Below are positions 6,544 to 59,462 of a DNA stretch of 64,000 bases, one piece after another; positions within the stretch are counted from its first letter, which is position 1, and each line of letters begins with the position of its first letter. The position numbers were made by a program, and so were the translations under genes. The DNA lies in contig OX597838.1 of assembly GCA_951406725.2 (NCBI GenBank), positions 10,106,001-10,170,000 on the forward strand, written 5' to 3'. The notes under the pieces are model-generated. The model was given only the letters and a program-made list of their open reading frames with translations, did not search any database and had not been told where the DNA came from. Source of the stretch: Octopus vulgaris (Eukaryota).

Positions 6544-6808
6544 GGTGCTGCTGTAGTTTATAGCCCCAGGAAGACATCTCCTCCAGCTGGCTATTGACAT
6601 ACTGTCTGTGCAAAGGGAAATCATTGTTCCCATCTCCAGCCTGATGCGATACACACGGACCCAGGTTTCTGAGCAGTAACCCGTCATCAGCACGTGACAA
6701 TCAGTGGCTAGGGATGAGAAGTGATATTTCCTTTTGCAAATATTGATAGTGTGCACACTAGCCAGCTGGAGGAGATGTCTTCCTGGGGCTACAAGCTAGA
6801 GTAGCATC
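6544..6808. mobile_element. Small inverted-repeat element (50-bp arms) carrying a hammerhead motif; probable Penelope-like relic
   Basis: Arms 6544-6593 and 6759-6808; the inner 33 bp are perfectly complementary (TAGCCCCAGGAAGACATCTCCTCCAGCTGGCTA). Confidence 0.7.
6652..6696 (-). ncRNA. Minimal type I hammerhead ribozyme motif
   Basis: Minus strand CACGTG-CTGATGA-CGGGTTACTGCTCA-GAAAC-CTGG-GTC-CGTGTG; canonical core, GUC site, 6-bp stem I with two G-U pairs, C-A mismatch at the base of stem II. Confidence 0.65.
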
Positions 6809-6990
6809 ATCCCATATGGGTCAACCACATTTAGGTGGCAAATATACTTCACAATATATATGTATGTGTGTGTGTGTGTATATATATATGTGTATATATG
6901 TATGTATATATAAATAAAATGTTTCTATTTCTTGACTAATGTTTGCTCTGCACTAATCCCTTTTTTTTCTCTCTTTGTTTTTATGAACAG

Positions 6991-7738
6991 GAAGAAGATT
7001 GCTGATCATATTGATGAATTCCATCAAGCACCACTGAAGATTGTTGTAGATAAAAACTTCAAGAAATACCAAATGGTATTTCCTTCACTGGGTGCCAGCA
7101 GAGAAAAGTTCCGTAGTAAGGGCATGACAGACATGTACCGTCACCGAAGAGCAAGTGGCAGTACCAGAAACAAAGTTATCAACCTTGACGACTCCGATGA
7201 TTCTGACGACTCCGAGTCGACGTCTGACTGGCGGCCTTCCTCCGAGAGCGATGACGATGATTACATCACACGATACTGCTGTTGTTATTGTTCGATGCGA
7301 ACACATGACTATGAGCGCTTCCGTAAGCATATTGCTAAACATTCCAGAAGCTGTGAGGAGCTTCAGTGTCAGAGCTGCTCATACCGTACGCATGATACGT
7401 ACAAGTTTGAGCATCACCTCAAGAAGCATCCAAGGGAGCATTTTTGTGGCTACTGCAACTTCTCGTCGATGCAAGAGTCCTTTGTGCAGCTGCATGTTCG
7501 GCGATTGCATCCAAAAAAACCAATTCAGATTCATAGTCGTAGCAAAGCTGCTGCAGCCAGCAACAGGACTCTGCCATCTGCGGTGGTGCCAGCCAATTTC
7601 AATGTGCGTGTTGTTCTTAAAGACTTCCTGGCACTTGACACTCTGGAATTTGATTCCTTAATGAAAGCCAATTTCATTCACAGCATTGATCTTGAAGACA
7701 TTGTTCTTGAAGAAGATAAACTGTTGTCTGTATTGTGA
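6991..7738 (+). CDS. Terminal coding exon of a C2H2 zinc-finger protein (acidic/Ser-rich tract plus three C2H2-type fingers)
   Basis: Polypyrimidine tract and CAG acceptor ending at 6990; about 248 open codons to TGA at 7736-7738; fingers CCYC..HIAKH, CQSC..HLKKH, CGYC..HVRRLH; higher GC than the flanks. Upstream exons not identified. Confidence 0.88.
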
Positions 7739-7878
7739 TCTCTCCATCACTCCTCCTCCTCACCCTCCTCCTCCTCTCTGAAGAAGAGGGGTGGTTTTAA
7801 CAAACAAACAAACAAACACACCCTTTCCTAGCCCCTCCCCCCTGCTGTACATAGTACCATTGGTTGATAATGTAGCCA

Positions 7879-7884
7879 AATAAA
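7879..7884 (+). promoter_or_regulatory. Candidate polyadenylation signal (alternative AATAAA at 9319-9324)
   Basis: AATAAA about 140 bp after the stop codon. Confidence 0.35.
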
Positions 7885-8932
7885 AGTCTAGACAAATACT
7901 ATAACCAAGATGGAGAAAAATAAGAAAACAAAACAAAAAAACAAAACTTGGTTGGCTGATGAACTTACAAAAAAAATTTTTTTTTTTTTAAACCTGTGTT
8001 TTATTTTTCAAATTCTTCTGTGAAGAATTAGTGGCCGTTTGCTTCAATAAGATTAGGAAGAATCTGAGCAGGAACCAGCAACCTTGAAATGGTTCTTAAT
8101 GTGATTCCTTTCCATTGGAATGTAATTTGAAGTTTAAAGTTCTGAATCTCTCTCACCGTGGCATGTGGTCTTTAACTGGTGTCACAAAGCTTAAGTTAAA
8201 ACAGTTTCCTCCTGTGACATTTGTTAATTAAGGACCAGCTTCTTTACTTCAAACATCCTGGTTTTCATCCTACCCTCCCATCCACCCACCCACCAACTGT
8301 AAACACGTTTGCGCCTGTGCACAGAACGCACTTGCATCCACCCGTCAATTCTCCTCCCAGAATCCTGTTCTGGGCTTGAGACATTACAGGTGATCGATCA
8401 TCAATATGTGTGTCACCTGTAGTGTTGATTGGTGAAAATTGTCATCATACCTTAAGTTTGGAACAAGGGAGAAGTAATAACGACACCTTGCCCCACACCC
8501 CAATCCTGACCCATGCATGTACCAGCCCTGTTGAGACAGGCACCAAGACCCACCTTTAAACCTGATAAAAACCCATTTTGAAGATATCATTAAAAGAAAT
8601 GAAAACACCAAAAGGCATTCATTTAAAGCTGTTAAATGTCTGCGTGTGTGTATGTGTATATATATATGTATCACACACTTGTATATTAGTGCACATACAT
8701 GGGTACATATATATGTATGTATATACACATATGTGTGTATATGCACATATATTCATGTATATGTGTGTATATGCACATAAATTCATGTATATGCACATAT
8801 ATGCATGTATATATAAATGTGTGTGTGTGTGTGTATATATATAATGATACTGAATATGTATGTGTGATGTTATGTATATATCAGGCATGTAAGTATGTAG
8901 ATAGGTGTGATGTTATGTATATTTGGCACCAA

Positions 8933-8968
<36 letters not shown>

Positions 8969-9719
8969 AGATATTAATGGCTGCGAGGTTAAGGTGCTAG
9001 ATTTACAGACCAGATGGTCGTGTGTTCAAACCTTGCTAGTGCAGCCATTGTACTGTTGTGCTGCTCCTGGGCAAAGGCAAAGCAGAGCAAACAATGAATA
9101 GAGCTCCGCTTGTTCCCGTGTTTTTTTGCCTGACTTAATTTTAAACAGGTCCCTACTACCTGATTCACTGTTTGAGTGGTTAGTGGTAAGGAAGGGCAAA
9201 ACATCTGTAGGTGTGAAAAATAATTTGCTCCAACAAAAAAAAAAAATCCATCCCACCCATAAAAGCATAGAAAACGAAAAAAAAAAAAATCACAAAAAAA
9301 TGGATGTAAAACAGCAACAATAAAAATGTTATTAAAACCGTCGCGTCACAAAAAAAAAAAACAAGATTTTGGACTTGCTTGTACCTCATTCCAGGTCATA
9401 ACAGCACATCGTAATATTTCCAAGACCCCGTTCCCATGGTTTTTCTATCTTCCTTTTATATTACTTTGTTTTGTTAAAAAATTTTTTTTCTAGGTCACAG
9501 TTAAAAAGTAAGGAAGGTTGGAAAAGACAAAACTTTTTTTGTCCTGTTTTAATATGAAAGAATTTACTGTGTGTACCAGACCTTGGCCATCTTGATGAAA
9601 ATAACTGATTATTGTTGTTCTCTAGCCCCGAACAAGACCTCAACCGATACATGCTGTGATCAAAAGTGTTCCAAACTTGACTGTCCCAATTTGTCTTCTC
9701 TTTCAGATGTTTTATGTCT

Positions 9720-10760
9720 ACGTATACCTTATCCAAAATGTTCTCCGACACCACCATCACTCCCTTTTTTTTTCAAATATGGTAAAGTATGACATGAAGA
9801 TGCAGGGATTTGCTTGCTATTTCTAGCATTTCAAGACTAGGTGTACCTTAAACAGAAAATTGGAGTTTAGGAGGAAAGAACGTTTTGGATATTAACATGG
9901 TAAAGTGTGATATGAAGGCACAAGGATTCGCTTTCTATTTCCAGCAGTTCAGGACAAAGTGTACCTTATCCAAACTGTTCTTTCCTCCCTGCTCCTATAT
10001 TTGTTTGCTATTTTTAGCAGTTCAGGATGAAAGTCAAATTATTTATTAACAATGGAGGCAGTATTAATACAGAGAGGTGATATTTGTCCCCGTTTCAATG
10101 TGGATGTTCTGTTGGGACAAACCCTCATGTTGGCTTTTGGTGTCAAATGCACTCTTGCTTATCACTACCAGGGAGATAGATTCCCACCACTTCCACCGAC
10201 AAAACCAACAGGATCATGTGATTTCAACCTTCCTTGGTCTTGTCAGTGATAGATGCTCAACAACTAGAGAGAGAGATAGCAGCAATTCATCTCCGCTAAT
10301 GATATATGGAATAACAGTGCCGGAACAGATGCTGGTATCACCACTCCAATTTTTGGTTTTAATATGGTAAAGTGTGATATGAGGGCACAGGGACTTGTTT
10401 GCTAATTCTAGCAGTTCAAGACTAGGTGTACCTTATCCAAACTGTTACAGGGATTTGCTTGCTATTTTGTAGCAGTTCAGGACAAGGTGTACCTTACCCA
10501 AAGTGTCCTTTCTTTCCCATTCCAATTTTTGTTTTTAACATGGTATGGTGTGACATGGCAAACTGGCAGAATCGTTGGCATGCCAAGGTCAGCTTTGCCT
10601 CTCGCATCCTTTCAAGGCCAATAAAAGAAGTACCAGTTGAATACTGGAGTTGATATAAGCGACTTACACCCTCGCCTGAAATTGCTGGCCTTGTGCCAAA
10701 ATTTAAAAACCAACACAGTAAGGAGTGGACACTGATTTATTTGCTATTTTTAGCAGCTCA
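9720..10760 (+). repeat. Degenerate dispersed tandem repeat (about 6-7 partial units)
   Basis: Recurring TGGTAAAGTGTGATATGA..GCACA.GGA.TTG.TTGCTATTT.TAGCAGTTCAGGAC.AGGTGTACCTTATCCAAA. Confidence 0.75.
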
Positions 10761-11387
10761 GTAACACCCTCCACTCCATACATGCTCTTTTGTTCATGTG
10801 ACCTACGGAGATGGATGTTTTTGTGTGTGTGTGCACGCACGCATGCACCTGAATCAGCTTTTGTTAATGTTTTGTTATACTAAAAACTTTTTCTTTTATA
10901 TGAAAACAGGTTTTTGCAGTTTATGATTATGACTACGACTACCGTGAAAAACCTTATGAACTCCATTTATTGAGTGTTGTGAAAGTTCTTTACTGCACTG
11001 GTTTAAATCCTAAACTTGCTTGAAAGCACATTTAAGATGGTATTGTTTGGAGTGGGTGTCAAAAACTGAAAACTAAGAACTGCTCTGTGCAAGAAACAAA
11101 GTTTGGCCTCATTTTAGAAAGAAGTTCCTGTGTGCATTTAATGCCTTTTCTTCCTTCAGTTTTTGAGCTTAACCCCCATGTCTGTTCAAAGCAGTTTCAT
11201 ATGGTCTGCAATAATAGCTTCCAATTTATTCTGGTGGTTGAGAAAAATTGGTTACGTGTATCATATATGGTGCATGATACCAGGGAAATATGCCCCCTGT
11301 GTATCACATGGGGTAACAATACAGGACAGGTAAAGGATTGCTGTCAGTTACCCCAAGCAGTGAGTTAGAATTGAAGGATTATTATTG

Positions 11388-14040: not shown

Positions 14041-14062
14041 ATATGACATAATTAAACAGTTA

Positions 14063-14570: not shown

Positions 14571-14785
14571 TACATATAGAACCGCAAACATAAAAATGTC
14601 AATTAAATCCAAAATAGAAACCTCTACAAGTTAGAATAAACATAAAACGATGGTTTATGGGGTGTCTATTTACTTCTGTTGTAATGCAAAAACCAAGCAT
14701 CTTCTGTATTTTTATGCTCTAAGTAAATTTACACATCTATCTCACTATCTACATGATTATATGTGTACCGGTATATATGACTATA

Positions 14786-15711
14786 TTGGGTCATCTGATA
14801 AATAATGCGTCTATTTTTTAATATTTTATTCTTCAAAATTAAGATGAAGTTATTTTTTAAATCTAAAATATACTCTCCATTTTCTACAATGCTCTCCCAT
14901 CTATCTGGTAGACTTGCAAGGCCCTTCTTCCAAAATTCACTTGTCTGCGATGAAAAATACTCCTCCAGTGCTGTTCTCACCTCGTCTACAGAATTCATAT
15001 TTCTTCCATCCAAATGATTTTGAAGACTGCGCAATAAATGATAGTCAAATGGGGCAGTGTCCGGCAAATATGGTGGGTGGGGCATTGTTTCCCATTCAAA
15101 CTGCTCCAGAAAAGGTTCGTCTATGAGACAGGACATCAAAGAAGAGCACATATTCACTCTCTCTGTGTGATTAGACTCAGAAAGTTTGCAAGGAACCCAT
15201 TGCCCCAATTTTCTGGCTTTTCCAATGGCAAGCAGATGTTGATGAATGGTTGAATGACCAAAACCCAAGCTTCTCTGCTGGTTCCTCAACAGATATGATG
15301 GAATTTTGTTCCACCTGGCTTTGCAGTATGTCTTCATCAAGCTCTACAGATATTCCAGGACAAGGCTCGTCTTCTAGGCTGTAGTTTCTGGCTTGGAATT
15401 TCTGTTGACACTGGCTTACGCTTATTGTGCGATCCCCATATGCTGCATTCATATTCCTCGTAGTTTCTGTTGAATTGTTGCTTTTATTGAAATCATAAAG
15501 CAAAATATGCTCCTTTGTCACTTCCATTATAGCTTTGGAAAAGATAACTGTTAAAATCGAACTGCACTCTTCAAAACTGGCACTAAGAATAAGGACACGT
15601 TAAAATTACTACCTGCTTTTATATCAAGTTGATGCAGGTAGTTGATCCTGTCCCCCTCCGACTTTTAGGTCATGCAATTGAAAAAACTGCATTATTTATG
15701 GAATGACTCAA
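14786..15711 (-). mobile_element. Internally deleted mariner element
   Basis: TA flanks; TIRs TTGGGTCATCTGATAAATAATGC / GCATTATTTATGGAATGACTCAA; MEVTKEHILLYDF, GQWVPCKL, PHPPYLPDTAPFDYHL; middle of the catalytic domain missing. Confidence 0.88.
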
Positions 15712-15757: not shown

Positions 15758-16072
15758 GAAGGCACATGGCTTAGTGGTTAGGGCATTCGGCTCACAATTG
15801 TGAGTTCAGTCCCTGGCAACGCATTGTGTTCTTGAGCAAGACACTTTATTTCACGTTGCTCAAGTCCACTCAGCTGTCAAAAATGAGTAGTGCCTGTATT
15901 TCAAAGGGCCAGCCTTGTCACACTCTGTGTCATGTTGAATCTCCCTGAGATCTATGTTAAGGGTACACGTGTCTGTGGAGTGCTCAGCCACTTGCACGTT
16001 AATTTCACCAGCAAGCTGTTCCATTGATCGTATCAGGTGGGACCCTCATCACCGTGACCGAAAGAGTGCTCC
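15758..16072 (+). mobile_element. tRNA-derived SINE, family D
   Basis: Head GGCACATGGCTTAGTGGTTAGGGC; tail shared with 52177-52566 (TTTCAAAGGGCC..GTTAAGGGTACACGTGTCTGTGGAGTGCTCAGCCAC). Confidence 0.8.
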
Positions 16073-18567: not shown

Positions 18568-20124
18568 AGGTGTAAACAAGGTGCGTTCAAAAAGTACCCG
18601 ACTGTTTTTTCTTGCCAAAACTAATGGGCACGGGCAAAATTCCTTTGGGTGGGGAGCGATGAATGTAAAAACAATAAAATAAATGGGTTTATTTGTGAAA
18701 TACAGTTGTGATTTGAATTTGCTACAGAAAGTGGTCTGTGTTTGTGGTGGGAAGTGGGGTCTCAAGGAATGTTGCCAAGCGACAGCATCCTGAAAACATT
18801 TGGGGACCACTGATCTGGGGCAATGACTTGTGGTGCATTATACAATTGTTTCCGTAAGCAGGCGATATTTTTATTCCATTTCTCATACAATGTTATGAAA
18901 ATCATCGTGTTATATAATACATGCCATACTTCAGAATACATGGAAATATGTAATAATAAACCTATGGTCCATTCGCTTCCTCAGATGTCATGATTTGAAG
19001 GTAGGGCCCTACGAATTTCAGTGTGTCACGATATGTACATCAGGTGGACCCCAAAAAGCTTTCACTTGATATCTCCTCTAAGTTTTGAGACAATCTTAAT
19101 ACAAGGGTATAGGGGTAGATCAAAATAAAGTCCAGTTAAATTTATCTTACATCAAAGCATTAACAGTAAAACTACAGCCTGCCGTTTAATGATTTTTATG
19201 GCAATGACAGGGGACTAGCAAAGGAAGTTTACTCTACGAATTCACTGGCGCCTTTACCCTACAATCCCATCTCAATGATGCCCCCAATCGACAAACAAAA
19301 ATACACTCGAAAATGAATTAGCATCCGCATTCTCTCCCATAATTACGATGCTAAAATAACCGCACACATACTATATATATTATACATATAGACACACGCA
19401 TATGGATATATATATATAAACACATACAAGTTCATGCACACACACACACATTCCTCTACCCACATAAGTCGCACAAAAATTGCAATGCCAAGATGTATAT
19501 ATGTATGTATGTATGTATGATACATACATATGAACACTTGTTCACACACGTATATGTGTATATATATATATATATGTGTGTGTGTATGTATATATACAAA
19601 CGTATATATACATAATTAAAGACCCACACATATGCTGTACTCATCAAATGCAAAATAAGTTTATAAATACCAGGATTCACACACAAACCTAGGCTTCTTT
19701 GTATGTATACACACATACATGCCTGCATACATATACACAACTATATACACACACACACCCTCGTACATGCACAGTTACACATAAATACATGACTAATACG
19801 AAACCGTTTTATTTCTACTTAGAAATATCTAGTTTCAATGTCATCATAATTGCCCACACGTTTAAAAATACACACCCAAATATTCACTCATATGTACATA
19901 CATAGACACACAGCCATATATATATATACATACATATATTGCCCTATATATACCCACGCATACACATAAGCACATAAATTTATATCATGTTCGCTAAACA
20001 TAAAAGATATGTTGATATACGCAAGAATTCTCATATATATATATATATATATAGTTAATCCAAACATGAAAACACGAGGACGTGGAAAAGTATAGTATTA
20101 TTGGACGCTCAGGAAAGAAGGAGG

Positions 20125-20159
20125 GTTTAACATTTCGAGCGGAGCTCTTCGTCAGAAAC
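20125..20159 (-). ncRNA. Minimal hammerhead variant with an extra base after A9 (Penelope-type)
   Basis: Minus strand GTTT-CTGACGA-A-GAGC-TCC-GCTC-GAAATGTT-AAAC; stem III is one transition away from palindromic ACGT. Confidence 0.6.
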
Positions 20160-20323
20160 ATAGGAAAAGGAAAGATCCAAAGAACGGAAGACGGAGGAAA
20201 AAACAAAATCGCCAACAGTACACACGCGGTATATAGTGATAGAAATGGTAAGACAACAAAAGAATGAAAGAGACCTCGATATTATGTAAATAGAGGAATT
20301 TATCTGTAAATGTAATATGTGAC

Positions 20324-20406
20324 AATTATTTGGTAGCCATGATAAAACTCCGAGTTTCCACCCCGTCATCCGAATCTCGGAGTTTTATCATGGCTACTGA
20401 ATAATT
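20324..20406. repeat. Short foldback (about 31-bp arms) with a degenerate hammerhead-like centre
   Basis: GTAGCCATGATAAAACTCCGAG ... CTCGGAGTTTTATCATGGCTAC; minus strand centre CGGATGA-CGGGGTG-GAAAC-TCGGA-GTT. Confidence 0.75.
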
Positions 20407-20421
20407 ATCACATATTACATT

Positions 20422-20572
20422 TATATATATATATACACACACACACACATATATATATATATACACACACACACACATATATATATATACACACACACAC
20501 ACACATATATATATACACACACACACACATATATATACACACACACACACACATATATATACACACACACAC

Positions 20573-25821: not shown

Positions 25822-26224
25822 TGTAGATGTAGTAAATGTGTTGTAAAGAAAAGTTCTCTTTTATGGGTGCCTCAGAAGTTCCTGATAGCGAGTGCCTCAC
25901 TGCAGAGCAGACAGTATCCTCCGCTGCCAGTATAAGGCATAGCACAAATGACAATGGACCAAGTGGTTGAGTAATTCTTGCCTTGTCGTTTAAGCTTGGA
26001 TACTGAAATAAAACCAGCCTTGCCTTCATGTCTAAAAGTATATAAGTGGTTTTGTAGTCGGACTTTAAAACTAGCAGAAGTTGCACTTATGTAATTATAT
26101 ATTTTTCCGCAAGTGAGGACAGAACATATGTAAACAACATCTGTTCAGTCTATTTACGTGTCCAAATGAACTCATCCCAAACCATTCATTTGGTCGATTG
26201 TGCCTTCAAACTATGACATGTGAG

Positions 26225-28969: not shown

Positions 28970-29041
28970 TTAAAGTAAAAATATAAAATTCATGTCAAAA
29001 AGAAGCACAGACTGTTGGTTTTGTATGTTGTTTTTAATATC

Positions 29042-29746
29042 ACTATCATTGAAGCCATGCTACTGAAGTCCCGCCTCCGATGGTCAGGGCATGTCTCCAG
29101 AATGGAGAACCATCGCCTTCCTAAGATTGCCCTATTTGGCGAACTCTCCACTGGCCACCGTGTGAGAGGAGCTCCGAGAAAGCGCTACAAAGACTGCCTC
29201 AAGAAGTCTCTAACAGCATGTCATATTAACCACTCAATGTGGCAACTGGCAGAATCGTTAGCACGCCGGGCGAAATGCCTAGCAGTATTTCGTCTGTCGT
29301 TACGTTCTGAGTTCAAATTCCACCGAGGTTGACTTTGCCTTTCATCCTTTCAGGGGTCGATAAATAAAGTACCAGTTTCGCACTGGGGGTCGATGTAATC
29401 GACTTAATCCCTTTGTCTGTCCTTGTTTGTCCCCTCTGTGTTTAGCCCCTTGTGGGTAATAAAGAAACATATTAACCACCAATGCTGGTCAGACCTGGCT
29501 GTGGACTGTGATGTCTGGCACCACACGATCTTCAACGCAGTCAGCAAGTTTGAGGAACAAAGAGACGCGCTTAAAGACAAGAGACGCAGGAGGAAGGCGC
29601 GAGCCGCCTCTGACAGACCACACCGGATGTTACCTTCATCTGTGGACACTGCTCACGGACCTGCCTTTCCCGTATCGGACTTGTCAGACACATGACGTGG
29701 ACAGCCTTCCTGATCTTCATTCGCGAAGCCGAGCCATGATGATGAT
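29042..29746 (+). mobile_element. RTE-clade LINE 3' end interrupted by a SINE
   Basis: LRWSGHVSRMENHRLPKIALFGEL..RGAPRKRYKDCLKKSL; C-terminal CGHC..SRIGL..H; (ATG)n tail. Confidence 0.85.
29241..29467 (+). mobile_element. SINE family C nested in the RTE, with TSD
   Basis: CTGGCAGAATCGTTAGCACGCCGGGCGAAATG.., central GCCTTTCATCCTTTC.GGGGTCGATAAAT domain; TSD CATATTAACCAC(T)CAATG on both sides. Confidence 0.88.
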
Positions 29747-42088: not shown

Positions 42089-42986
42089 CGAGGTGTAGTC
42101 AAAAAGTATCCGACATTTGGCCCAAAACAAGTAATATTAAAAAACTCACCGTTCTGATTTAGTCTCCTTCAAAATATTCTCCTTGGGAACCTACACACTT
42201 CTGCCAACGTTCCGGTCACTGCTGGAAACATTTATGGAAATCACTGTTTGGGGGATGCTGTAGAGCTGTGCCGTCGAATTTTGCTTAAGTCCTCCCTTCA
42301 CTGAAATCCCCCTTTGAATGTTTTTTTGAGCTTTGGGAACAGCCAAAAGTCACACAGAGTCAAGTCTTGGGAGCAGGAAGCCTGATGAAACAAGTGGTGT
42401 GTTTTGCTTGACAAGGAAGGCTTGGACGACGTGGCCGGAATGAACTGAGCGAATCGAACTGGTTGAACTGACCCATAACTGATTCCAACTTCGGCAACAA
42501 TCACCTCAATAGTCACACGACGGTCTTCATAGACTATTCCTTAAACCTTTGCAAACATTTCGTAGTTTCTGCTTGTCGATGGTCTGCCGCAACGTGGCTC
42601 ACTGTCCATTGAGGTGCGGCTATTTTGAACTGAGTGTACCACTCCTTTATTTGTGTTTTTTCTCGTAGCATCATCTCCAAAGGCCTTCCGAATCTTCTCG
42701 ATAGTCTGGGCTTGCGTATGACCAAGTTTTTGACAGAATTTGATACAGAATATTTGCTCAATGAACTCGGCCATCTTGACTAAAAAAGAAAAATCGCACA
42801 GTACACCCTTCACGTCTGTACTCAACCCGTCTCTGAGGGCGAATGGCGCAACCTACGAACACGAAATTTCTTGCGCATGCTCGGGAAAGACGCGGCCACC
42901 TATGACCCCCATGCGGGTTTTGCTCACGCCTTGTTATTTTGTGCCAAAAAAAAAATCAAGGTCGGACACTTTTTGACTACACTTAG
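42089..42986 (-). mobile_element. Internally deleted mariner element (irritans-like)
   Basis: TA flanks; TIRs CGAGGTGTAGTCAAAAAGTATCCGAC / GTCGGACACTTTTTGACTACACTTAG; EQIFCIKFCQKLG, GRPSTS, SQDLTLCDFWLFPKLK. Confidence 0.88.
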
Positions 42987-44746: not shown

Positions 44747-45198
44747 GTCAATATAGAAAAAATGAGATCCTATAGAAAAAATTAAATATAAGATAAAAAC
44801 ATATACCAATGATTAAGTAATGTGCAAAGTAATACTTAAAACGTATATATTTAGTAAAATGACTACACGTGTTTCGTGGTTATATTTAAGAAATGATAAC
44901 AGTAAAATCAATTCAATATAAATATAGCCACACTTCAGGTCAAAGATAAAAATACTAAAAATAATTATCTTTATTATTTTATTATTATATTATTTTAATC
45001 TTTGACCTGAAGAGTGGCTATAGTTATATTGAATTGATTTTACTGTTATCATTTCTTAAATATAACCACGAAACACGTGTAGTCATTTTACCAAATATAT
45101 ACGTTTTATTTATTATTTCGTACATTACTTAATCATTGGTATGTGTTTTTATCTTATATTTAATTTTTTTCTATATAATCTAATTTATTCTATATGAC
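44747..45198. mobile_element. AT-rich foldback element (arms about 210 bp) with a hammerhead in each arm; Penelope-like relic
   Basis: Arms reverse-complementary with few mismatches; centre near 44970. Confidence 0.8.
45003..45085 (+). ncRNA. Type I hammerhead ribozyme, canonical core
   Basis: TGAC-CTGAAGA-GTGGCTATA[loop]TATAACCAC-GAA-ACACGTGT-A-GTCA; palindromic stem III, GUA site at 45079-45081; the mirror copy at 44860-44942 (minus) has A9 to U. Confidence 0.75.
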
Positions 45199-45266
45199 AT
45201 ACTTTAATTTTTTCATTGTTGAATTGATAAAAAGTGGGTTTTTTTCTAATTTATTTATATATATAT

Positions 45267-47022: not shown

Positions 47023-47314
47023 GTAATCCATTTCCTCATCACTCATCGCCGAGCCAATCGTTTCGTTTTTGCTTCTTTCCAAATGTGTGCATATGTTTGT
47101 CTTGATGGATTCTATTGGAAAATTTTGAAGCTCAAATATTGCAAATTTTATATCAAGCATTGTTATTCTCAACAATTCTTAGGCATTCATTTAAACAATT
47201 TTCCCCTCTGTTTTCACCTCAAGGGTTTACATAATAGGATGAGGTTTTCTCCACACACATTTTCACACAAACTTTACCAACTCAACATATATTCCATTTG
47301 TTTAGTGTTAATAT

Positions 47315-48945
47315 AACTGCTGATAACCGGATCTGTCCCACGCGTGACAACAGCTGTTCGATGAAGCTCCACAGGTCAGTAATGCGTGGACACTGGACGA
47401 GTGCATGCAGGACGGTTTCATCGCCCTGCGCACACCTCGGACAGGTCAGTCTGACAGCACTTCCATGTCTGCAGAGCTTGTCTCGAACCGACAGAGCTCC
47501 CCGGTAGCACTGCCAGTCTAGGGGTTTCTGAAAATTATCCATAAGCCCTGACCCGAAAGTCCAACGGAAAAGACCACTTAGCTGATCCCTCTCGACGCCC
47601 AGAGTTTCCCCAGGTACGTCGTCGCTCTTTTCACTAATCCTCTATAGAACAGCAGAGTGGAACTTCCACCGACCACGTTGTCCGACTGATAGAAGGCCGT
47701 GAGCGCTTGCCGACACTCCAGGTGCCAGGCGCCAGATACCCTTTCTTGGTCTGCGCTTGACCCAGGACTGTAGTTCCATCAATGGGACGAGCTGTGGATA
47801 GTCCCGTTTGTCGAACGGCGACCATACCTGCTCACCGTTAAGGAAACGCTAGAGATGTCGCAGCCTCAGTGCATGTCTGCGCGTCATTAACCACGGCATG
47901 CCCAGTCCTCCACTTAGCGGTTGTTGAGAGTAGATGGATCGTCCGACAAGCGGGACACGTCCTTTCAATAGAAAGTGGAAGAGCAAACGCACCAACTTTA
48001 TCAGGCACGAAGTGGAGCAAGGGATAGCGGTCAGGTGGTAGTAGAGGACGGAAGCGATGTATGCATTCGCCACTTGCGGCCGACCCTGCAGGAATACTTC
48101 CTCTCTGCCCATTTCTGGGTGAGATTGGCTGCCCTGCTCGTTACCTCCCCACTGTTTTTGTCCACCTGGAGGTCTGGACCAAACCAGACCCCGAGCGACT
48201 TAACCGGTCCTTCTGTCCAGCGCCTTATAACGCTGTCGGTTGGCATGGACCTACTTCACCAGGTACCGAGCGGCAGGCCCACCGACTTCTCCTGGTTGAT
48301 CTTTGCTCTTGTCACCGCTTCGTACTCCCTTAGAGCTGTGCCGATCACCTTGATTTCCGAGATGCTCAACACTATTACGGTGCCGTCGTCCGTGTAAGCC
48401 AACACGAACCTTCCGCATCCTAGGTGACGCAGAATACCCCTCGAAACATCCAGCTTCCGCAGCAATGGCTCGAGAGGCAGTACGTGCAGAAGAGGTGCGA
48501 GTGGGCAGCCTTGACGGATCGAGCGAGCGATGCTAAACGATTCCGAAAGGTGGCCATTTACTTTCACCACCAAGCAGACGTTACTGGACATCGCAGCGAT
48601 CCAGCCCCTGAAAACTGAATCGAAACCCGCTGCCGCAAGAACAGCCTCCAATTATTGGTGGTCGACCCTATCAAAAGCTTTCGGCTGATCCAAATTTATC
48701 AGGGCTCCACCCATACCAGGTTTCTTGCCCACTCTCTCTATGATATAGCGCGTGAGGTGAAGGCTGTGGTGGAGAGTTCTGTTTGGGGTAGCGCATGTCT
48801 GCGCGTCACCAACTAACTTATCGACGACAACCGCTAACCTCTTCGCTAAGACACAGGCCAAAATTTAATAATCTGTATTCAGCAGAGTTATAGGTTTAAA
48901 ATGATCAATTTTGCCCCCTTGTTCGGGTCCTCCCTTAATAGCACC
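47315..48945 (-). mobile_element. L1/Tx1-like LINE ORF2 remnant (reverse transcriptase plus C-terminal Zn motif)
   Basis: DQPKAFDRVDH, SIRQGCPLAPLL, AYTDD, INQEKS, GGLGMP, CPRCAQGDETVLHALVQCP; GC-rich and frameshifted. Confidence 0.9.
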
Positions 48946-49716
48946 ACCTTGGTTTGATAGAGGTGTGGTCGCTATTTCTTAAATGTATATAAAAAAAAAG
49001 TCTTCGCTGTGAGACAACGAATAATGTGTATACATCGTCTGGTTTGTTTTCGTTTGATAGTTTCTGAATGCAGGCGGTTTATATATACTGTTAATTCACA
49101 TAGATTACGTACATGCATACGTGCAGACAGATATTAACATAGATTAGAATTTGATGTAGAAACTGAAATAGTATAATGAATAAGGGAGGAAAAAAAGATA
49201 GATATAAAAGTGTAGAAAGGAGAAATAGAGGGAGAGTGCGGTTTAACAAAGGCGAATCAAATGTAGCTATCATCACGGACGCATAATTTTGAGAGGTCCT
49301 TGAGTTAAGTATTTGGAAAACGGTTGAAGCATTGTCTTCGTTTTTGCACGAGCACTACAAAACACTCAGATAAACATAGTGTTCTGTCTATGAGGACACT
49401 GTTATAAACAATTATATCGCAGTTTAAACTATTTTAACACTTAAGTTGTTTATCTTGCTTTTAGCTTGTTTATCACAACAGATGTTGGAAGTTATCAATG
49501 AGGATTTTTGTCTCTTAAACTCGAAATCTCTCCAAATTTTGATGATCTTTAACCAATTAGTTTTTTTATTTTTTTATTTTTATCACATAAAGAATGTATT
49601 TAAACCGATTTCTTTCACTCCAACTGTTTTTAAAATAAATAAACCAAGTAGCATAGCGTGTGGCGTCAGGACCGCAGACGACCGTTACCTTATAAATATA
49701 TATACATATATATATA

Positions 49717-49999
49717 CTTTATTTAAAGCAGCAGAAAATTCAACAAAATCTGTTACTCTGAGTTTCTCGTTGCCGTTCATCAGACAGTTTTTTCTAGCAA
49801 AAACTGTTACTCTGAGTTTCTCGTTGCCGTTCATCAGACAGTTTTTTCTAGCAAAAACTGTCTGATGAACGGCAACGAGAAACTCAGAGTAACAGATTTT
49901 GTTGAATTTTCTGCTGCTTTAAATAAAGCATATTACTCTACCACTGGTATTTGAGTACTCTTTTTTTCCACCTTGTTTCACATTTATGTGTTTACTCCG

Positions 50000-50001
<2 letters not shown>
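49717..50001. mobile_element. Penelope-like foldback with three hammerhead copies (palindrome 49717-49928)
   Basis: Near-perfect inverted arms; exact 54-bp duplication at 49750-49803 and 49804-49857. Confidence 0.8.
49858..49895 (+). ncRNA. Minimal type I hammerhead motif (two more tandem copies on the minus strand, 49750-49846)
   Basis: CTGT-CTGATGA-ACG-GCAA-CGA-GAA-ACTCAGAGT-A-ACAG; GNRA loop on stem II, GUA site, A-A mismatch at 10.1-11.1. Confidence 0.7.
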
Positions 50002-51004: not shown

Positions 51005-51048
<44 letters not shown>

Positions 51049-51105
51049 AAATAAAAAAAAAAGGGAAAATACGCACACTTACATAGTTTTAATATAATTT
51101 TTAAT

Positions 51106-51140
51106 ATATCGACCGGTTTCGCTATCGCTATTCATGATAT
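51106..51140 (-). ncRNA. Minimal type I hammerhead motif with an A3-U8 core
   Basis: Minus strand ATATC-ATGAATA-GC-GATA-GC-GAA-ACCGGT-C-GATAT; all three stems pair; GUC site. Confidence 0.6.
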
Positions 51141-51189
51141 TATGTTTTACTTATCTGAATATATATTTTTTCTTAAGAAGAAATTTTGT

Positions 51190-52840
51190 CCATGTTGTGT
51201 GGGATGAAATTCATGATTAGGATCATTATCAGTGAAAACCTGCTGATCTTATATAAGTGCCAACACTTTAGCAATAATATTTGTAATCAATTTAAGTGTT
51301 GCAGAAGGAGCTTCCATTATCCTATCTGTATTTTCAGCTTGTTCTTTTTCTAGCGGCATCATTAGATAAACTTTCTTTCTTGGACACAAGCAACTCAGTC
51401 ACGTCATCCTCTATGACTTCTTCAAATCCTACATCCTTTGCATGTGTCACTGTATCTTTCCGAATTTGATGTAGATTTCCTGCTTGAGGAAAACTTGTAA
51501 TGTCACGGATACAGTCTGGCCATATATTTTTCCAAGCACTTTTCAAAGTTAAAGGCTTCATTTTATCTCGTGACTCATCTGTATTACCCACAATAACCAT
51601 TATGTCGAATTTCTTTTAGAAATCTCTAACTGTACGTTTATGCTGCCTGTCAATTGCTTTCATAAATTGTTTGAAAGCTTTCTTCATATATTGTACCTTG
51701 AAGTTAGCTATCACACTGTGATCTATTGACTGGAACAAGGAGGTTGTATCCTTGGGGATATATTCTACTCTCACATTATCAGAAATATCATCTAATTTCA
51801 CTGGGTGGCTCAGTGCATTGTCTAAACGAAGCAATTCTTTGTTGGAAATATATCTGTCTCTGTACCCTTCAAATGCAGGACAAAAAGCATTTGTAAGCCA
51901 TGCTTAGAAAAAAAAACTTATGTCTTCTTATTTGAACACCAAACCAGAAATAGATTCATTTTGAGTAACCTTTGAAAGCCTTAGATTTTCAGAATCATAT
52001 ACGAGTAGGGGCTTTAATTTCATATCACCAGCGCCATTTCCTCCCAAAAGAAGAGTCAGACGATTTTCGAAAGCTTTAAATCCTGGTATTGATTCCCCTT
52101 CTCAAGAAATTAAAGTTCTGGCAGTCATACACATTTCCAGAACAGTACAGTTTCATCAACGTTGTACATTTGCTTTGGAGGCGCAATGGCCCAGTGGTTA
52201 GGGCAGCAGACTCGCAGTCATAGGATCGCGGGTTTCGATTCCCAGACCGGGCGTTGTGAGTGTTTATTGAGCGAAAACACCTAAAAAAGCTCCATGAGGC
52301 TCCGGCAGGGGATGGTGGTGATCCCTGCTGTACTCTTTCACCACAACTTTCTCTCACTCTTACTTCCTGTTTCTGTTGTACTTGTATTTCAAAAGGGCCG
52401 GCCTTGTCACTCTCTGTGTCACGCTGAATATCCCCGAGAACTTACGTTAAGGGTACACGTGTCTGTGGAGTGCTCAGCCACTTACACGTTAATTTCTCGA
52501 GCAGGCTGTTCCGTTGATTCGGATCAACCGGAACCCTCGTCGTCGTAACCGATGGAGTGCTTCCCAACATTTGCTTGATGTGTACCCCCCCTTTCAGCAA
52601 CCGTTTTCTTCAGTTGCTCAGGATAATTAGTAGCAGCCTCCGTATTAGCGCTTCCAGTTTCACCAGTCATTTTTATGCTGTGCTAATTCATGCGCTTTGT
52701 AAACCTTTCAAACCAACTTTTACTAGCCAAAAGGGGTTTTTCACTATAAGTTTCACCTTCCTTTTTCTGTAAATCGTATAAACTTTTGGCTTTTTTCATT
52801 CTTTGTCTTTTCTTTTTTATTACCATCGTGTTTATCGGCA
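51190..52840 (-). mobile_element. Decayed Tigger/pogo (CENP-B/DDE_1) transposase
   Basis: LRLDNALSHP, EYIPKDTTSLFQSIDHSVIANFK, TLKSAWKNIWP, VGFEEVIEDDVTELL; its 3' part recurs at about 54405-54662. Confidence 0.85.
52177..52566 (+). mobile_element. SINE family D inserted in the Tigger element
   Basis: tRNA-like head GGAGGCGCAATGGCCCAGTGGTTAGGGC..GGTTTCGATTCCC; TSD ACATTTGCTT. Confidence 0.88.
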
Positions 52841-52889
52841 CATTACACTGATTCTGACCCTCGAGTCATACACCCAAGATTCGTTACCT

Positions 52890-53831: not shown

Positions 53832-53885
<54 letters not shown>

Positions 53886-54404: not shown

Positions 54405-54662
54405 TGTCCATGTTGTGTGGGATGAAATTCATGATTAGGATCATTATCGGTGAAAACCAGCTGATCTTCTATAAGTGCCAACACCTTAGCAATAATATTT
54501 GTAATCAATTTGAGTGTTGCAGAAGGAGCTTCCATTATCCTATCTGTATATTCAGCTTGTTCTTTTTCTAGCGGCATCAGCTCCTCATTAGATAAACTTT
54601 CTTTCTCGGACACAAGCAACTCAGTCACATCATCCTCTATGACTTCTTCAAATCCTACATCC
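54405..54662 (-). mobile_element. Second Tigger-like 3' fragment
   Basis: Near-identical to 51185-51435. Confidence 0.8.
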
Positions 54663-54989
54663 TCTCATTACTGGCGTAAATGTAAACTCTTGTCCGAAGA
54701 ATAAATATCATCGATAATTTCCTCAACTGCAAAGAGTCTGGGCCTTCGTCGTTTACAAGATGAAGTGTTGGATTCATCACATTCTCGTTTCATTGCAAAA
54801 TCGAATTATTTTTTCCTATAAAAAAAAAAAAAATAGACAACAACTATGGGGGACACTATTATCAATGAGTTATAAACACATTTGTCTACAAAGCTGCAAC
54901 GGGATCAGTTGTCTAATTTTAGTATTTTATCTTAATTCCCAATTTAGCGGGAATCCAGCAATGATCCCGTTTAAGTTATTCCTGCTATA

Positions 54990-55154
54990 GGCGCAGGAGT
55001 GGCTGTGTGGTAAGTAGCTTGCTAACCAACCACATGGTTCCAGGTTCAGTCCCACTGCGTGGCACCTTGGGCAAGTGTCTTCTGCTATAGCCTCAGGCCG
55101 ACCAATGCCTTGTGAGTGGATTTGGTAGACGGAAACTGAAAGAAGCCTGTCGTA

Positions 55155-55207
<53 letters not shown>

Positions 55208-55388
55208 ATGTGTGTTTGTGTGTGTGTTTGTCCCCCTAGCATTGCTTGACAACCGATGCTGGTGTGTTTACGTCCCCGTCACTTAGCGGTTCGGCAAAAG
55301 AGACCCGGGGTCGATTTGCTCGACTAAAGGCGGTGCTTCAGCATGGCCGCAGTCAAATGACTGAAACAAGTAAAAGAGTAAAAGAGTA
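54990..55388 (+). mobile_element. SINE family A
   Basis: Full head and tail with a small internal deletion. Confidence 0.9.
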
Positions 55389-56000
55389 TAGTGGGAATAC
55401 GGCTTGATATGGTTAAGGCATAAAAAATAGGTTCAAATAAGCAGACGAAAGAATTCATAGTTACGGAGATTTCATTTGATAAGTTTCAAATTCTGGAAGT
55501 GATAATTTCTGTATGCTATGCAGACATAGCAATCTGACAAGTAGTTTGCTAGCCAGAGTGTTGTGTTGCTTCTTGAAGTGGCTTTGGGTATATTTTTAAC
55601 TCAATAACAGGGACTTAAAAGTTTTGATCGTGTCCACTCTAAGAATGATATGCGTGTGAAGTTGTTTTGTTTTTGAAGCAGCTGTCAAGTATCCTCTTCT
55701 GGTTTCATGAGTTAAGTGGTGACAGAGTGTAATTGTCTGGATGTATGTTGTAATTTGGAGAGGGGGAATGGGTAGGTTTGGGATATCAATGGAATTTAGC
55801 CTATGAAATATTTTAGTGAAACTTGCAAGAGCACAGTGAGGACAGATAGGAACCTTCAAAGGCGCCTCAAAATGATTCTGAGGGACAATTTGCTCGACTG
55901 TGTCACAAGTGAAGAGTTTCTAAGAAGTGCAATGTCACAGCCACAAGAGATTGTAGCACAACACTGATTCTGCCTAGCTAGATACATTCTCCATCTAACG

Positions 56001-56246
56001 CAGTGGTTCTCAGCCAGTTTTTGCCTGTGGATTCCTTCGATTCCTGTTTTACTCAGGTGGACCCCATAGCCGTTCGATGCTTTAAAAAATCCTATTATAT
56101 CTTTATGATCCTATATTATTAAGAATTGTGTAAAAAAAATAATTTTTTAATATTTTGTGCTTTGTAAAAGTATAACCAATTTATCCCACAAATCTTATAT
56201 GTACCCCCTCCCCAAGAGTCATGTAGACCCCAGTTGAGAACTCCTG
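56001..56246. mobile_element. hAT-type MITE
   Basis: CAGTGGTTCTCAGC / GTTGAGAACTCCTG; 8-bp TSD ATCTAACG / ATCTAACA (7/8). Confidence 0.75.
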
Positions 56247-56317
56247 ATCTAACAAATCATTGGCATTCATTAGCTGGTACTTGTGTACCAGCTAATGGCA
56301 GGTATAAAAGGAGATAA

Positions 56318-56705
56318 GGCGGCGAGCTGGCAGAAATGTTAGCACGCCAGGCGAAATGCTTAATCGTCAGATTAAATAAGTACCAGTTACGCACTGGGGT
56401 TGATGTAATCGACTTAATCCGTTTGTCTGTCCTTGTTTGTCCCCTCTACGTTTAGCCCCTTGTGGGCAATTAAGAAATAGATATATATATATTACTTTCT
56501 AGTTGAGGTGAAATGCCTGAAATATTTGGGGGGTGGGAGAGGATGATAGTCGATTACATCGACCCAAGTGCTCAACTGGTACTTTTTTTATCGACCCTGA
56601 AAGAATGAAAGGCAAGGTCGAGCTTGGTGGAATTTGAAAGCAGAACGTAAAACCAGAAGAAATATTGCTAAACATTTTATCTCGTGTGCTGTCAGCTCGT
56701 CCCCT
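56318..56705. mobile_element. Two SINE family C copies tail-to-tail (56318-56480 plus; about 56520-56705 minus)
   Basis: GGCGGCGAGCTGGCAGAA head; TCGACCC.GAAAG.ATGAAAGGCAA in the second copy. Confidence 0.7.
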
Positions 56706-56934
56706 CAGATAATCCATTTTAATAAAAGAAGGGACAAGTCAAAATTTCGAGAAATAATTGGGGTTTTTTTCAGATTGGGTATTATCATTATTATTATCAT
56801 TATCATTTATGGTTTCTTTTCATTATAACTTTATGTCAGCTGCCTTAGTACTGGGCATCCTCCAGGGGCCAAGAGTAACAAGGGCACTTTTGTTTTGCCA
56901 TGCATGCTAAAATTATCGCCACATTTATTCCATT

Positions 56935-57485
56935 TTAGATGGAGAGTGCTTTCCGTAGTCTATGGGCTGTCCCCATCAAGGTTATCTTTTGTAGTTCGTG
57001 GAGATTGGAGTTACCAGGGAGTTGCTTAATATACTCCTCAGCTCCCTTCTTTATCATTCCCAACTCACCAATTACTACTGGTATTATCGTAGTACTTAGC
57101 TTCCACGTTTTTGTGATTTCAATTTGCAGATCTTTATAGTGAGAAAGCTTTTTGTATTTGTCTTCTTGAGACATTTTGATCTTGTGGGACAGACATATCT
57201 ATTACCAGATAAGTTCCTCTGTTGTTATCCTTGATCACAATGTCTGGTCAATTTTTCTGTCTTGTTTGTATTGGGAAGTTCCAAGGGACGGTGATCCTCT
57301 GGACGGTGCCTGTACCACTTATCATGGGATTTAATTTTGTAGCATTCCAGTGGATGTACTGCCCTAGTCTGTCATGTCTTACAAGGGACCCCTTTCCAGT
57401 GAGGACTGGGCAGCCAGAAACAACACAATCAATTGTCTCTGTGAATGTTCTGCAAATTCTGCATGAGGGGTTGGATCCATCTTTT
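56935..57485 (-). mobile_element. RLE-bearing non-LTR retrotransposon 3' fragment (R4/Dong-like)
   Basis: Cys motif, RHD, PDIV..D, KKLSHYKDLQIEITKTWKL..IPVVIGELG restriction-like endonuclease motifs. Confidence 0.8.
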
Positions 57486-58208
57486 GTTGTTGTTTTGTGA
57501 TTGTGTTGGTATGTGCATGTTTGTGTGTGTGTGTTAATTGTTAAAAATATTTATTTTTCAATAATATGTTTTAGTTACCACAGTAACAAAAAGCACATTA
57601 TTGAAAATATTCTATGGTGGCTTTGTTTCATTCGTCAACAATAGTAAATTCTGCAATAAAAACAAACTTTCTCCATGTTTCTATGCAGCCAGAAATATGG
57701 TTCTTTGTCTCATTATTCAATAAACAGCTGTCAAACAAACAAACAAACAAACCTCTTAAAGGAAAAACAAAACAAAACAAAACAACCCTTCCTAAACCTC
57801 CCCATACAAAAAGTCAAAACAACAGGTGGCCAGACATCTCAACTCCCAAGTCCACTTATTCTTGTCCAAACCCTAGACACAAGGAAGCAATTTATTATAA
57901 ATATTTGAAATCTGGATATTTTTCAACAGCTGACATCCTTCACACACACACACACACAAATGAATACACACACACACACACAAATGAATACACACACACA
58001 CACACACACACACACAAATGAATACACACACACACAAATGAACGCATATAAGATGAAGACAAGTAACAAAATTCCCACGTAGCAGGGTTGATAATTAAGA
58101 GATTCCTCTTACATTAAACAATTGGTAGTCTTGTTGACCCACAAATAAAAAATATCTATTCACCAACAGTGTTGAGCGCTCAAACTCAATGTTCAATATT
58201 AGTGTATA

Positions 58209-58240
<32 letters not shown>

Positions 58241-59070
58241 GGCACAGGTGTGGCTGTGTGGTAAGAAGCTTGCTTCCCAACCACATGGTTCTGGTTTCAA
58301 TCCCTCTGTGTGGTACATTAGGCAAGTGTCTTCTACTATAGCCTCAGGCCAACCAAAGCTTTCTGAGTGGAAACTGAAAGAAGCCTATTGTGTATATATA
58401 TATCATCATCATCATTTAGCATCCGCTTTCCATGCTAGCATGGGTTGGACGGTTCAACTGGGGTCTGTGAAGCCAGAAGGCTGCATCAGGCCCAGTCTGA
58501 TCTGGCAGTGTTTCTACGGCTGGATGCCCTTCCTAACGCCAACCACTCCGTGAGTGTAGTGGGTGCTTTTTACGTGCCACCCGCACAGGTGCCAGACGAG
58601 TCTGGCAAACGGCCACGAACGAATGGTGCTTTTACGTGTCACCGGCACGGGGGCCAGGCGAGGCTGGCAACGGCCACGAACGGATGGTGCTATATATATA
58701 TTAGAAAATATAAGGTACTCAGAAATCTGGATGGTTTTATATTTACAGATTTTTATTAATATGTCACATGTTTTTATAAATGATATATTAGTGCTTGCAT
58801 CCACTCTAGTAGATTCTTCAGATATGTATGTATATGTATATATTTATGTGCATGTGTGTGTATCGTGCCTGTATTAGTACTGCCACCATCACTTGACAAC
58901 CTATTTTAGTGTGTTTATGTCCCCGTAACTTAGCAGTTTGGTAAGGAGAGTGATAAATTAAGTGCTTGGCTTACAAAGAATATGTCCTGGGGTCAATTTC
59001 TTTGACTAAAAAACCCTTAAAGGTAGTGTTCCAGCATGTCTGCAGTCAAATGAATGAAACAAGTAGAAGA
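58241..59070. mobile_element. Degenerate SINE A (+) interrupted by retroposon family B (58403-58690, minus)
   Basis: A head at 58241, A tail at about 58890-59070; B (CAT)n start at 58403. Confidence 0.7.
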
Positions 59071-59186
59071 ATATATATATATAAATGTATATATATATAT
59101 ATATATATATATAATAAATGTATATATTTCGTTTGGGGATTAGGTTTGCAAGATTCTTTATGTGAATTTGTGTGTTGAAGCAAATT

Positions 59187-59462
59187 CTGTTGTGCCAGGG
59201 GAGAGTCATTCTGTTTTGGTGCCTTGTAATTTAACATACTCATTGGTAAAATTTCCACTTAATTCTTTCTTATTTTTCTAAAATTTTTGTTGCATCTTGC
59301 AACCTTTTCAATAGTTTTGACACAAAACTATTGAAAAGGTTACAAGATGCAACGAAAATTTTAGAAAAAAAAAATATAAAAAAGAAATAAGTGGAAATTT
59401 TACCAGTGAGTGTGTTAAATAATAAGACACCAAAAGAGAATGACTCTCTTCTGACACAACAG
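59187..59462. mobile_element. Foldback element (arms about 135 bp) with a hammerhead-like centre
   Basis: GAGAGTCATTCT..GGTAAAATTTCCACTT..CCTTTTCAATAGTTTTG-ACA-CAAAACTATTGAAAAGG..AAGTGGAAATTTTACC..AGAATGACTCTC. Confidence 0.8.
59328..59364 (+). ncRNA. Hammerhead-like variant with a U3-A8 core
   Basis: CTA-TTGAAAA-G-GTTAC-AAGAT-GCAAC-GAA-AATT-T-TAG; stem I only 3 bp. Confidence 0.4.

Follow-up and report, generated by a model that had tools for sequence, protein, structure and literature searches.

Minimal type I hammerhead ribozymes were described by Cervera and de la Pena (2014, PMC4209133) in the pseudo-long terminal repeats (pLTRs) of Penelope-like elements (PLEs). Here we compare the known systems with six hammerhead motifs in a 64,000-nucleotide stretch of the Octopus vulgaris genome (assembly GCA_951406725.2, contig OX597838.1, positions 10,106,001 to 10,170,000 of the forward strand; hereafter the window). 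The six sites (S1 to S6, in window order) belong to six separate high-copy repeat families, and one more family, S7, was found outside the window. In every family majority the core positions 3 and 8 (N3 and N8) form a Watson-Crick (WC) pair, which is C-G, U-A, A-U or G-C according to the family. As in the octopus, the PLE hammerheads of PMC4209133 have a short stem I, a palindromic stem III and often an extra base after A9; they occur as thousands of solitary copies of many families per genome, as opposite-strand pairs 100-700 bp apart and as terminal repeats around a frame for reverse transcriptase (RT) and GIY-YIG domains, and they include a U3-A8 variant with ~1300 matches in Schistosoma mansoni. 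Unlike them, related octopus families differ at positions 3 and 8, and A3-U8 and G3-C8 cores are not described, nor a cephalopod listed, in the text of that paper that was searched. Several natural examples of covariation from C3-G8 to U3-A8 were given by Perreault et al. 2011 (PMC3088659), whose relevant passages name only U3-A8, as rare single examples and not as high-copy families. PLE hammerheads, their dimers, the U3-A8 core and inverted copies are thus already published.

Hammerhead catalysis uses G12 as the base and the 2'-OH group of residue 8 as the acid, and C3 forms a WC pair with G8 (PMC8495972, PMC6155905); the G8C mutation is partly rescued by C3G (PMC8495972, PMC6155905, PMC11167929). 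PLE hammerheads with a palindromic stem III act as dimers, weakly (PMC4209133, PMC6765202). In PAc, the Poseidon element of Anolis carolinensis (PMC11167929), the core is C3-G8 and the C3G/G8C double mutant partly rescues cleavage. PAc resembles the octopus elements in having its ribozyme near the start of the open reading frame (ORF), two internal RT start sites that give an optional tail, extension of both DNA strands, AT-rich targets and an uncleaved RNA template; the likeness is one of features, and G3-C8 is an engineered rescue in PAc, as it is in all the literature surveyed. Our literature search found no report of natural A3-U8 or G3-C8 hammerheads, in cephalopods or elsewhere, but it was not exhaustive, so earlier reports are possible and priority is uncertain. 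A 2026 annotation of octopus repeats lists 31 recently active PLE families, and the word ribozyme is absent from the text seen (PMC13282606). Hammerheads in PLEs cleave poorly in vitro and were dispensable for insertion in the one reconstituted system.

Hammerhead motifs and repeat families

A sequence-only reading of the window had proposed six sites with particular cores and stem III palindromes, and all of them were found in place. In the six sites and in the family majorities we observed a three-way junction open at stem I, with the NUGANNA, GAAA and UH segments and a palindromic stem III (Table 1). The architecture had been called minimal throughout, which is right for S2, S5 and S6 but not for S3, where the stem II region forms about 14 bp. 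In S1 and S4 stem II is flanked on either side by one unpaired base, and an extra base precedes G12. An extra unpaired base after A9 together with a G10.1-C11.1 pair characterizes S2, S6 and S7; S3 and S5 have G10.1-C11.1 without the extra base, and S1 and S4 deviate. One S1 copy (L115) has an extended stem I with an internal loop in its predicted fold.

The whole genome (2.8 Gb, 227 contigs) was searched for these families. A first look, whose numbers are lower bounds and not copy numbers, gave at least 1698 candidates for S1, 3119 for S2, 1707 for S3, 1423 for S5 (the best 40 of them at 96-100% identity) and 794 for S6. The DNA similarity search was unproductive for S4, and its copies were counted by exact pattern instead: 3912 matches to a 20-mer, against 4580 for a 20-mer of S6 and 6746 for a 17-mer of S7, with 0, 0 and 1 matches to the reversed patterns. 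The majorities retain the cores in all six families and improve the stem III palindromes of S1 (ACCCGGGT) and S2 (ACGT, where the window copy has ATGT). Further C3-G8 families with a very long stem II (35-70 nt), similar to S3, were seen in the flanks of L074, L093, L156, L170, L194, L196 and L050.

Motif frequency was assessed with a descriptor for a stem I of at least 3 pairs, NUGANNA, a stem II with an optional unpaired base on either side, GAAA, a palindromic stem III and UH. It was tuned on the window sites, a stricter first version (no extra base, short stem II) having caught only S5. In the window it matched 8 WC motifs (6 C-G, 1 U-A, 1 A-U) and no non-WC motif, against 0.10 WC and 0.15 non-WC in 20 shuffles. 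The independent test consisted of 20 arbitrary 10-kb genome stretches (200 kb), from which density and family counts are rough; it gave 14 WC matches (13 C-G, 1 G-C) and 1 non-WC match, against the 0.30 WC (maximum 4) and 0.83 non-WC (maximum 5) of 60 shuffles. The reversed sequence of the sampled loci (987 kb) contained 0 WC and 4 non-WC matches. When UGA was replaced by decoy triplets, five of seven gave no match and the other two gave few and unbiased ones (2 WC and 3 non-WC; 1 WC and 2 non-WC). The 14 WC matches stem from 7 insertions, 7 of the matches lying in one tandem array, so that by strict counting the density is nearer one insertion per 30 kb, to which decayed copies add more.

The window is AT-rich (38% G+C), with abundant microsatellites and repeats, and chance matches in such DNA might be suspected from the tuning of the descriptor on the window, from a stem I of only 3-4 bp in S2 and S6 and from Rfam, which gave no hammerhead among the 150 of 179 window matches listed at E<=5 and no match to its hammerhead models at gathering score in 7 loci. 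An Rfam match does not define the hammerhead class, whose minimal forms are found by descriptors. The window and independent descriptor tests rule out this explanation, and each site is moreover the majority state of a family with ~800 or more candidates; we regard its probability as practically negligible.

Variation of the core pair among families

C3-G8 is the commonest family core. The S5 core is A3-U8 in all 23 distinct rows, which come from loci picked by protein similarity, and five rows form a subfamily in which a stem I pair has changed from A-U to G-C. Contigs of four sequencing runs with four organism codes covered the S5 ribozyme, and among the 40 differences listed none falls at position 3 or 8. 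A sister family of S5 has a U3-A8 core, the same ACCGGT palindrome and one extra A before stem III (2 copies read). Its protein is 69% identical to that of S5 over 631 aa. This sister element (L219:909-3860 and L220; G000:C4:153218800-153223000 and C1:9000600-9004800) has intact 753-aa RT+GIY-YIG frames and many near-identical copies.

A comparable pair is formed by S6, with U3-A8, and S7, with G3-C8, a 7-bp stem I and a 5-bp stem II with a variable loop (for example L199:8250-8292(-), G000:C3:110008250-110008292). Eight of the ten letters from N3 onward are identical in the two families, and the differences are positions 3 and 8 only. A stem II pair switches between U-A and C-G, paired changes occur in stem I, and arm lengths are common to both; S7 is probably related to S6. 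Positions 3 and 8 were part of the pattern with which the majority of S6 and S7 rows had been selected, so constancy within each family is circular here, but the difference between the families is not. Among six bystander copies of S7, that is, copies in the flanks of sampled loci, four keep G3-C8 and two are mutated.

Because the S5 and S6 proteins are just 33% alike, over only 48 aa, the A3-U8 and G3-C8 lineages likely mark two separate moves away from C3-G8, with a U3-A8 family related to each, although this comparison of sequences does not set the direction of change. The covariation noticed in the window is thus real and extends further than had been proposed, to a G3-C8 family absent from the window. 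The statement that position 3 always complements position 8 applies to family majorities and not to every decayed copy: 37 of 47 bystander descriptor matches have a WC pair, and 7 of the 10 that do not are mutated copies of WC families. Compensatory stem changes shown by the families agree with the earlier suggestion that the cores were under structural selection. Since the tertiary core pair has been kept through four letter combinations, the swapped 3-8 pairs likely reflect a self-cutting fold kept under selection, as far as sequence comparison can tell. An idea prompted by PMC3884650, that N17 avoids pairing with N3, holds in 4 of 4 non-C3 families, with a chance expectation of ~0.2, and was discarded as evidence.

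Coding elements that carry the ribozymes

Judged from the frames that they adjoin, S4, S5 and S6 are terminal-repeat pieces of protein-coding PLEs. A search for linked PLE frames gave links for all three, and their description as non-autonomous foldback families is not supported as it stands. The motifs are PLE-type type I hammerheads. At two loci, S4 ribozymes lie on one strand 3365 and 3362 bp apart around an intact 727-aa frame; the first of these (L156) also has an inverted copy head-to-head. Direct pLTRs in partial tandem were seen for S4 in L156 and L157, and none were seen for S5 and S6 in the stretches examined. Pfam and PDB sequence searches with the 727-aa protein gave no direct match. 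It has a YRDD motif and matches the S5 sister protein (E 4e-6), and its homologues share Pfam PF28514/PF26215 with those of the S5 protein, one of them having GIY-YIG; by way of these homologues the S4 frame is assigned to PLEs.

For S5, 30 loci were picked by protein similarity alone. The ribozyme stands ~300 nt behind the frame on the same strand in 25 of them, is absent in 4 and is present only as an inverted copy in 1. In L166 the S5 frame (635 aa) contains RVT_1 (E 1e-6, just under the cut-off) and GIY-YIG (above the cut-off), the two domains that an EN+ PLE has in its single ORF, with the endonuclease at the C-terminal end. Longer S6 copies run upstream into a GIY-YIG frame in L269, in L254 and in the group L261/L263-266, a link that covers the GIY-YIG part only. 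The loci of this group (G000:C1:8.65 Mb, 206.6-206.9 Mb) are not independent, being one S6 insertion duplicated with its host region, which we take to contain macro-domain-like exons. The S4, S5 and S6 frames show Cys-rich linkers; such a linker before the endonuclease is, along with placement on an RT tree, a character for telling the Neptune/Nematis clade from the Penelope/Poseidon clade. Named homologues of the element proteins include those of bivalves.

Several other candidate links were rejected. A GIY-YIG piece lies beside the S7 copy of L230 on the opposite strand, and 0 of 7 other loci of that protein contain S7; two same-strand S7 copies 6.3 kb apart have no PLE frame between them; and a 700-nt upstream stretch common to the S7 loci L226 and L228 is another repeat. 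PLE fragments near S2 and S3 copies are inconsistent in strand or place, and one S1 copy beside a PLE frame (L109) is a single case that was not counted. The earlier statement that no Penelope RT/GIY-YIG ORF is visible in the window has to be qualified, since a decayed GIY-YIG remnant of another PLE is present (Table 1). It is followed by a ~150-nt tandem duplication, and no ribozyme was found behind it.

A retrozyme-like family

Non-LTR retrozymes are hammerhead-bounded units proposed to derive from and depend on PLEs (PMC7229834; bioRxiv 10.64898/2026.07.22.740005). Their units are non-coding, ~200-400 nt long and repeated from cut site to cut site. This layout is seen in S1 and in a young tandem array of 359-nt repeats at L193:2200-4600 (G000:C1:20002200-20004600), which holds seven head-to-head C3-G8 hammerheads (five on the plus strand, two on the minus strand); the units of both are AT-rich, non-coding and ~350 nt long, and the type I hammerheads at their bounds have a stem I of 6 bp. 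In the S1 locus L109, a second copy of the sequence behind the cut site lies 356 nt upstream. This 356-nt unit is homologous to the L193 repeat (score 96 vs 31+/-6, with the ribozyme left out), and both have predicted circular folds below those of shuffled sequence (-100.6 vs -87.7+/-5.0 shuffled for S1, -117 vs -93+/-5 for L193). By these sequence features S1 is a ~356-nt non-coding retrozyme-like unit, and the L193 array is a candidate non-LTR retrozyme related to it. S1 fits the earlier term non-autonomous, as a retrozyme-like unit rather than as a foldback family. Unlike the described retrozymes, which are expressed as circular and linear monomer RNA, S1 is known from DNA alone, its circle is a prediction, and its sampled copies are truncated and often inverted, none of 25 loci containing two tandem cores.

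Structure and origin of the two-armed insertions

Four of the window sites (S1, S3, S4 and S6) are foldbacks, as had been proposed, and the window copies of S2 and S5 are single-armed. Two-armed copies are oriented head-to-head in 24 of 25 S4 pairs, 10 of 10 S7 pairs and 29 of 29 S6 pairs, the last a biased count in which most pairs were fetched with a foldback query and pairs within a locus are not independent. A short arm is usually paired with a long one, ending 72/142 nt (S4), ~132/~190 nt (S6) and ~125/~185 nt (S7) from N3, and the centers vary between 6 and 5378 nt in S4, up to full-length arms, 10 and 88 nt in S6 and 16 and 50 nt in S7. S4, S6 and S7 therefore have neither the fixed internal structure nor the equal arms of a dedicated foldback or MITE-like family, and show instead an inverted 5'-truncated copy at the 5' end and an optional tail at one end. 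PLEs are known with inverted copies and optional tails (PMC8557442); the tail described there is 30-40 nt, that of S4, S6 and S7 is 60-70 nt. S4 arms run into TA repeats, and many short arms start 10-25 nt upstream of the core. Of 29 bystander copies (one locus counted twice), 22 contain the core and none has its start at the cut site.

The head-to-head orientation, the variable centers and the pairing of a short arm with a tailed one make it likely that the foldbacks arose by two-strand insertion and do not form foldback families of their own. The element endonuclease would nick both strands of a TA-rich target, and on each strand the RT would prime downstream of the ribozyme, using either of two start sites 60-70 nt from each other, which give the short and the tailed arm. 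Its template would be uncleaved RNA, often copied as far as a 5' end that lies 10-25 nt upstream of the core; there the two cDNAs may join head-to-head. We infer this joining, and a short head-to-head foldback as the product of two-strand priming, ourselves; the PAc text seen (PMC11167929) does not contain it. If so, two-strand priming from internal RT start sites is supported at the genomic level by the two-armed, head-to-head, one-tailed insertions. Read-through foldback transcripts are predicted to be 75-92% paired, with the ribozyme buried in a long duplex; given this and the many mutated copies, the scattered genomic copies are likely inert by-products.

The foldbacks might instead be dedicated non-autonomous families that transpose as such with a PLE enzyme acting in trans. 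Short copies vastly outnumber long ones, centers recur at certain distances, S1 is non-coding, and S2, S3 and S7 have no ORF link shown, so that S7 or S3 could be non-autonomous terminal-repeat derivatives. Yet S4, S5 and S6 continue into coding frames, the range of S4 centers reaches full-length arms, the unequal arms follow the PLE tail pattern, S2 and S5 are single-armed in the window, and a foldback transcript would hide its own ribozyme. With these observations, transposition as foldbacks seems improbable.

Predicted cleavage and its alternative

Taken jointly, the observations are probably best explained by six type I hammerhead families in which S4 to S6 are PLE pieces, S1 is retrozyme-like, cleavage is predicted to occur in dimers and the genomic copies are by-products. 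Site-specific self-cleavage 3' of N17 is predicted at the six sites. The palindromic stem III would pair between two copies, and self-cleavage as dimers would take place in the RNA of the parent (source) element, probably aided by the element's protein. The minimum free energy (MFE) structure of the S5 dimer is a double hammerhead 8 kcal/mol better than two monomers. Because the catalytic acid is the 2'-OH of residue 8, this residue may vary freely as long as residue 3 can pair with it, and selection on a few source elements would keep the 3-8 pair and the stems while their letters change.

We propose tentatively, with somewhat less than even confidence, that A3-U8 in S5 and G3-C8 in S7 are the first natural, selected and cleavage-competent cores of their kind, reached in two PLE lineages beside U3-A8 relatives, and that one animal genome contains thousands of copies for each of the four WC 3-8 pairs. 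This would mean that hammerhead catalysis in PLEs is under selection although uncleaved RNA gets inserted.

Several results weigh against these proposals. The downstream alignment of S6 and S7 is modest (z 4.4, reached by 1 of 200 shuffles, the best of 28 pairs), and the compensatory changes go back to a few events that were passed on to many copies. No consistent ORF link was found for S2, S3 and S7 in the 25, 25 and ~30 loci sampled, which is not a genome-wide survey of long copies. Of 10 sequences for which a dimer MFE was computed, S5 alone gives the exact double hammerhead, the S5 sister and S4 do so partly, and 7 others do not; in the S7 MFE structure a G3-U17 wobble lengthens stem I and would block the core. 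Some center distances recur, 25 nt in 6 of 23 pairs of S4 and 20 nt in 14 of 29 pairs of S6, as would also be expected if foldbacks were recopied, and the bias of the S6 pair count has been mentioned. Finally, ribozyme mutants of the anole element did not impair insertion in vitro (PMC11167929).

This last result also speaks for a different role, in which the A3-U8 and G3-C8 motifs, and perhaps all of them, keep their fold to serve the element protein as structural signals, for instance as a site for binding or as a stop close to the 5' end of the RNA, with negligible cleavage in vivo. The genomic copies come from uncleaved RNA, none of the bystander copies starting at the cut site; minimal PLE hammerheads cleave poorly in vitro (PMC4209133); no RNA reads of the anole element end at the cut (PMC11167929); and engineered G3-C8 rescues cleavage only partly. 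For a signal of this type, however, it is hard to see why a tertiary 3-8 pair should persist in four different letter combinations. G5, A6, A9, G12-A14, U16.1 and a non-G at position 17 are kept as well, a descriptor permitting G17 giving 1 isolated match. We therefore consider a purely structural role unlikely, though deserving of more weight than transposition as foldbacks. For selected self-cleavage, S6/S7 and S5/sister are natural matched pairs for direct assay. Entire families of thousands of copies escape searches that fix C3-G8 or permit U3-A8 as the sole alternative.

Coordinates and neighboring sequences

Table 1. Hammerhead motifs, the insertions that contain them and a PLE remnant in the window (N3, position of core residue 3)
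Feature	Position	Strand	N3	Remarks
S1 two-armed insertion, ~356-nt retrozyme-like unit	6546..6855	both		ribozyme in minus arm; plus arm is an inverted downstream piece without ribozyme
S1 type I hammerhead	6652..6696	-	6690	C3-G8; 6-bp stem I; predicted cut between 6658 and 6657
S2 short insertion	20053..20230	-		TA run at end
S2 minimal hammerhead	20125..20159	-	20155	C3-G8; extra A after A9; GUU triplet
Decayed GIY-YIG remnant of another PLE	25893-26156	-		iE 8e-9 to profile of S4-protein homologues; unlinked to the six sites
S3 head-to-head foldback	44751..45266	both		arm ends ~+189 and ~+260 from N3
S3 left-arm hammerhead copy	44860..44942	-		A9U; predicted defective
S3 hammerhead	45003..45085	+	45007	C3-G8; long stem II (56 nt); palindromic stem III; GUA triplet
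S4 head-to-head insertion in TA run	49712..50001	both		arm ends ~+70/~+140; 54-nt internal duplication; terminal-repeat piece of intact PLE
S4 hammerhead, third copy	49750..49787	-	49783	tandem with second copy
S4 hammerhead, second copy	49804..49841	-	49837	
S4 hammerhead	49858..49895	+	49862	C3-G8; 2-bp stem II; GCAA loop
S5 5'-truncated 3' end of RT+GIY-YIG PLE	51060..51216	-		
S5 minimal hammerhead	51106..51140	-	51135	A3-U8; GUC triplet; predicted cut between 51111 and 51110
S6 head-to-head foldback	59125..59462	both		arm ends ~+193 and ~+127
S6 left-arm hammerhead copy, absent from the sequence-only reading	59278..59314	-		G12A; predicted defective
S6 minimal hammerhead	59328..59364	+	59331	U3-A8; extra G after A9; UUU triplet; 3-bp stem I

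Beside S2, at 20306-20423, a different hammerhead family has left a short foldback that comprises its 3' part, from stem III onward, and has no CUGA core. Copies of a common repeat occur at 15988-16069(-) and 52478-52560(-); another copy of it, L003, gave a weak A3/G8 hammerhead-like match with no stem III, which is probably due to chance. Just downstream of S1, a 274-aa open frame at 6914-7738(+) has several C2H2-like zinc-finger motifs (weak Pfam match, E 0.033) and is probably a host exon. The frames at 14729-15599(-), 42541-42852(-), 47282-48651(-) and 28979-29332(+) are presumably decayed pieces of mariner-type transposase or LINE reverse-transcriptase genes, which they resemble.

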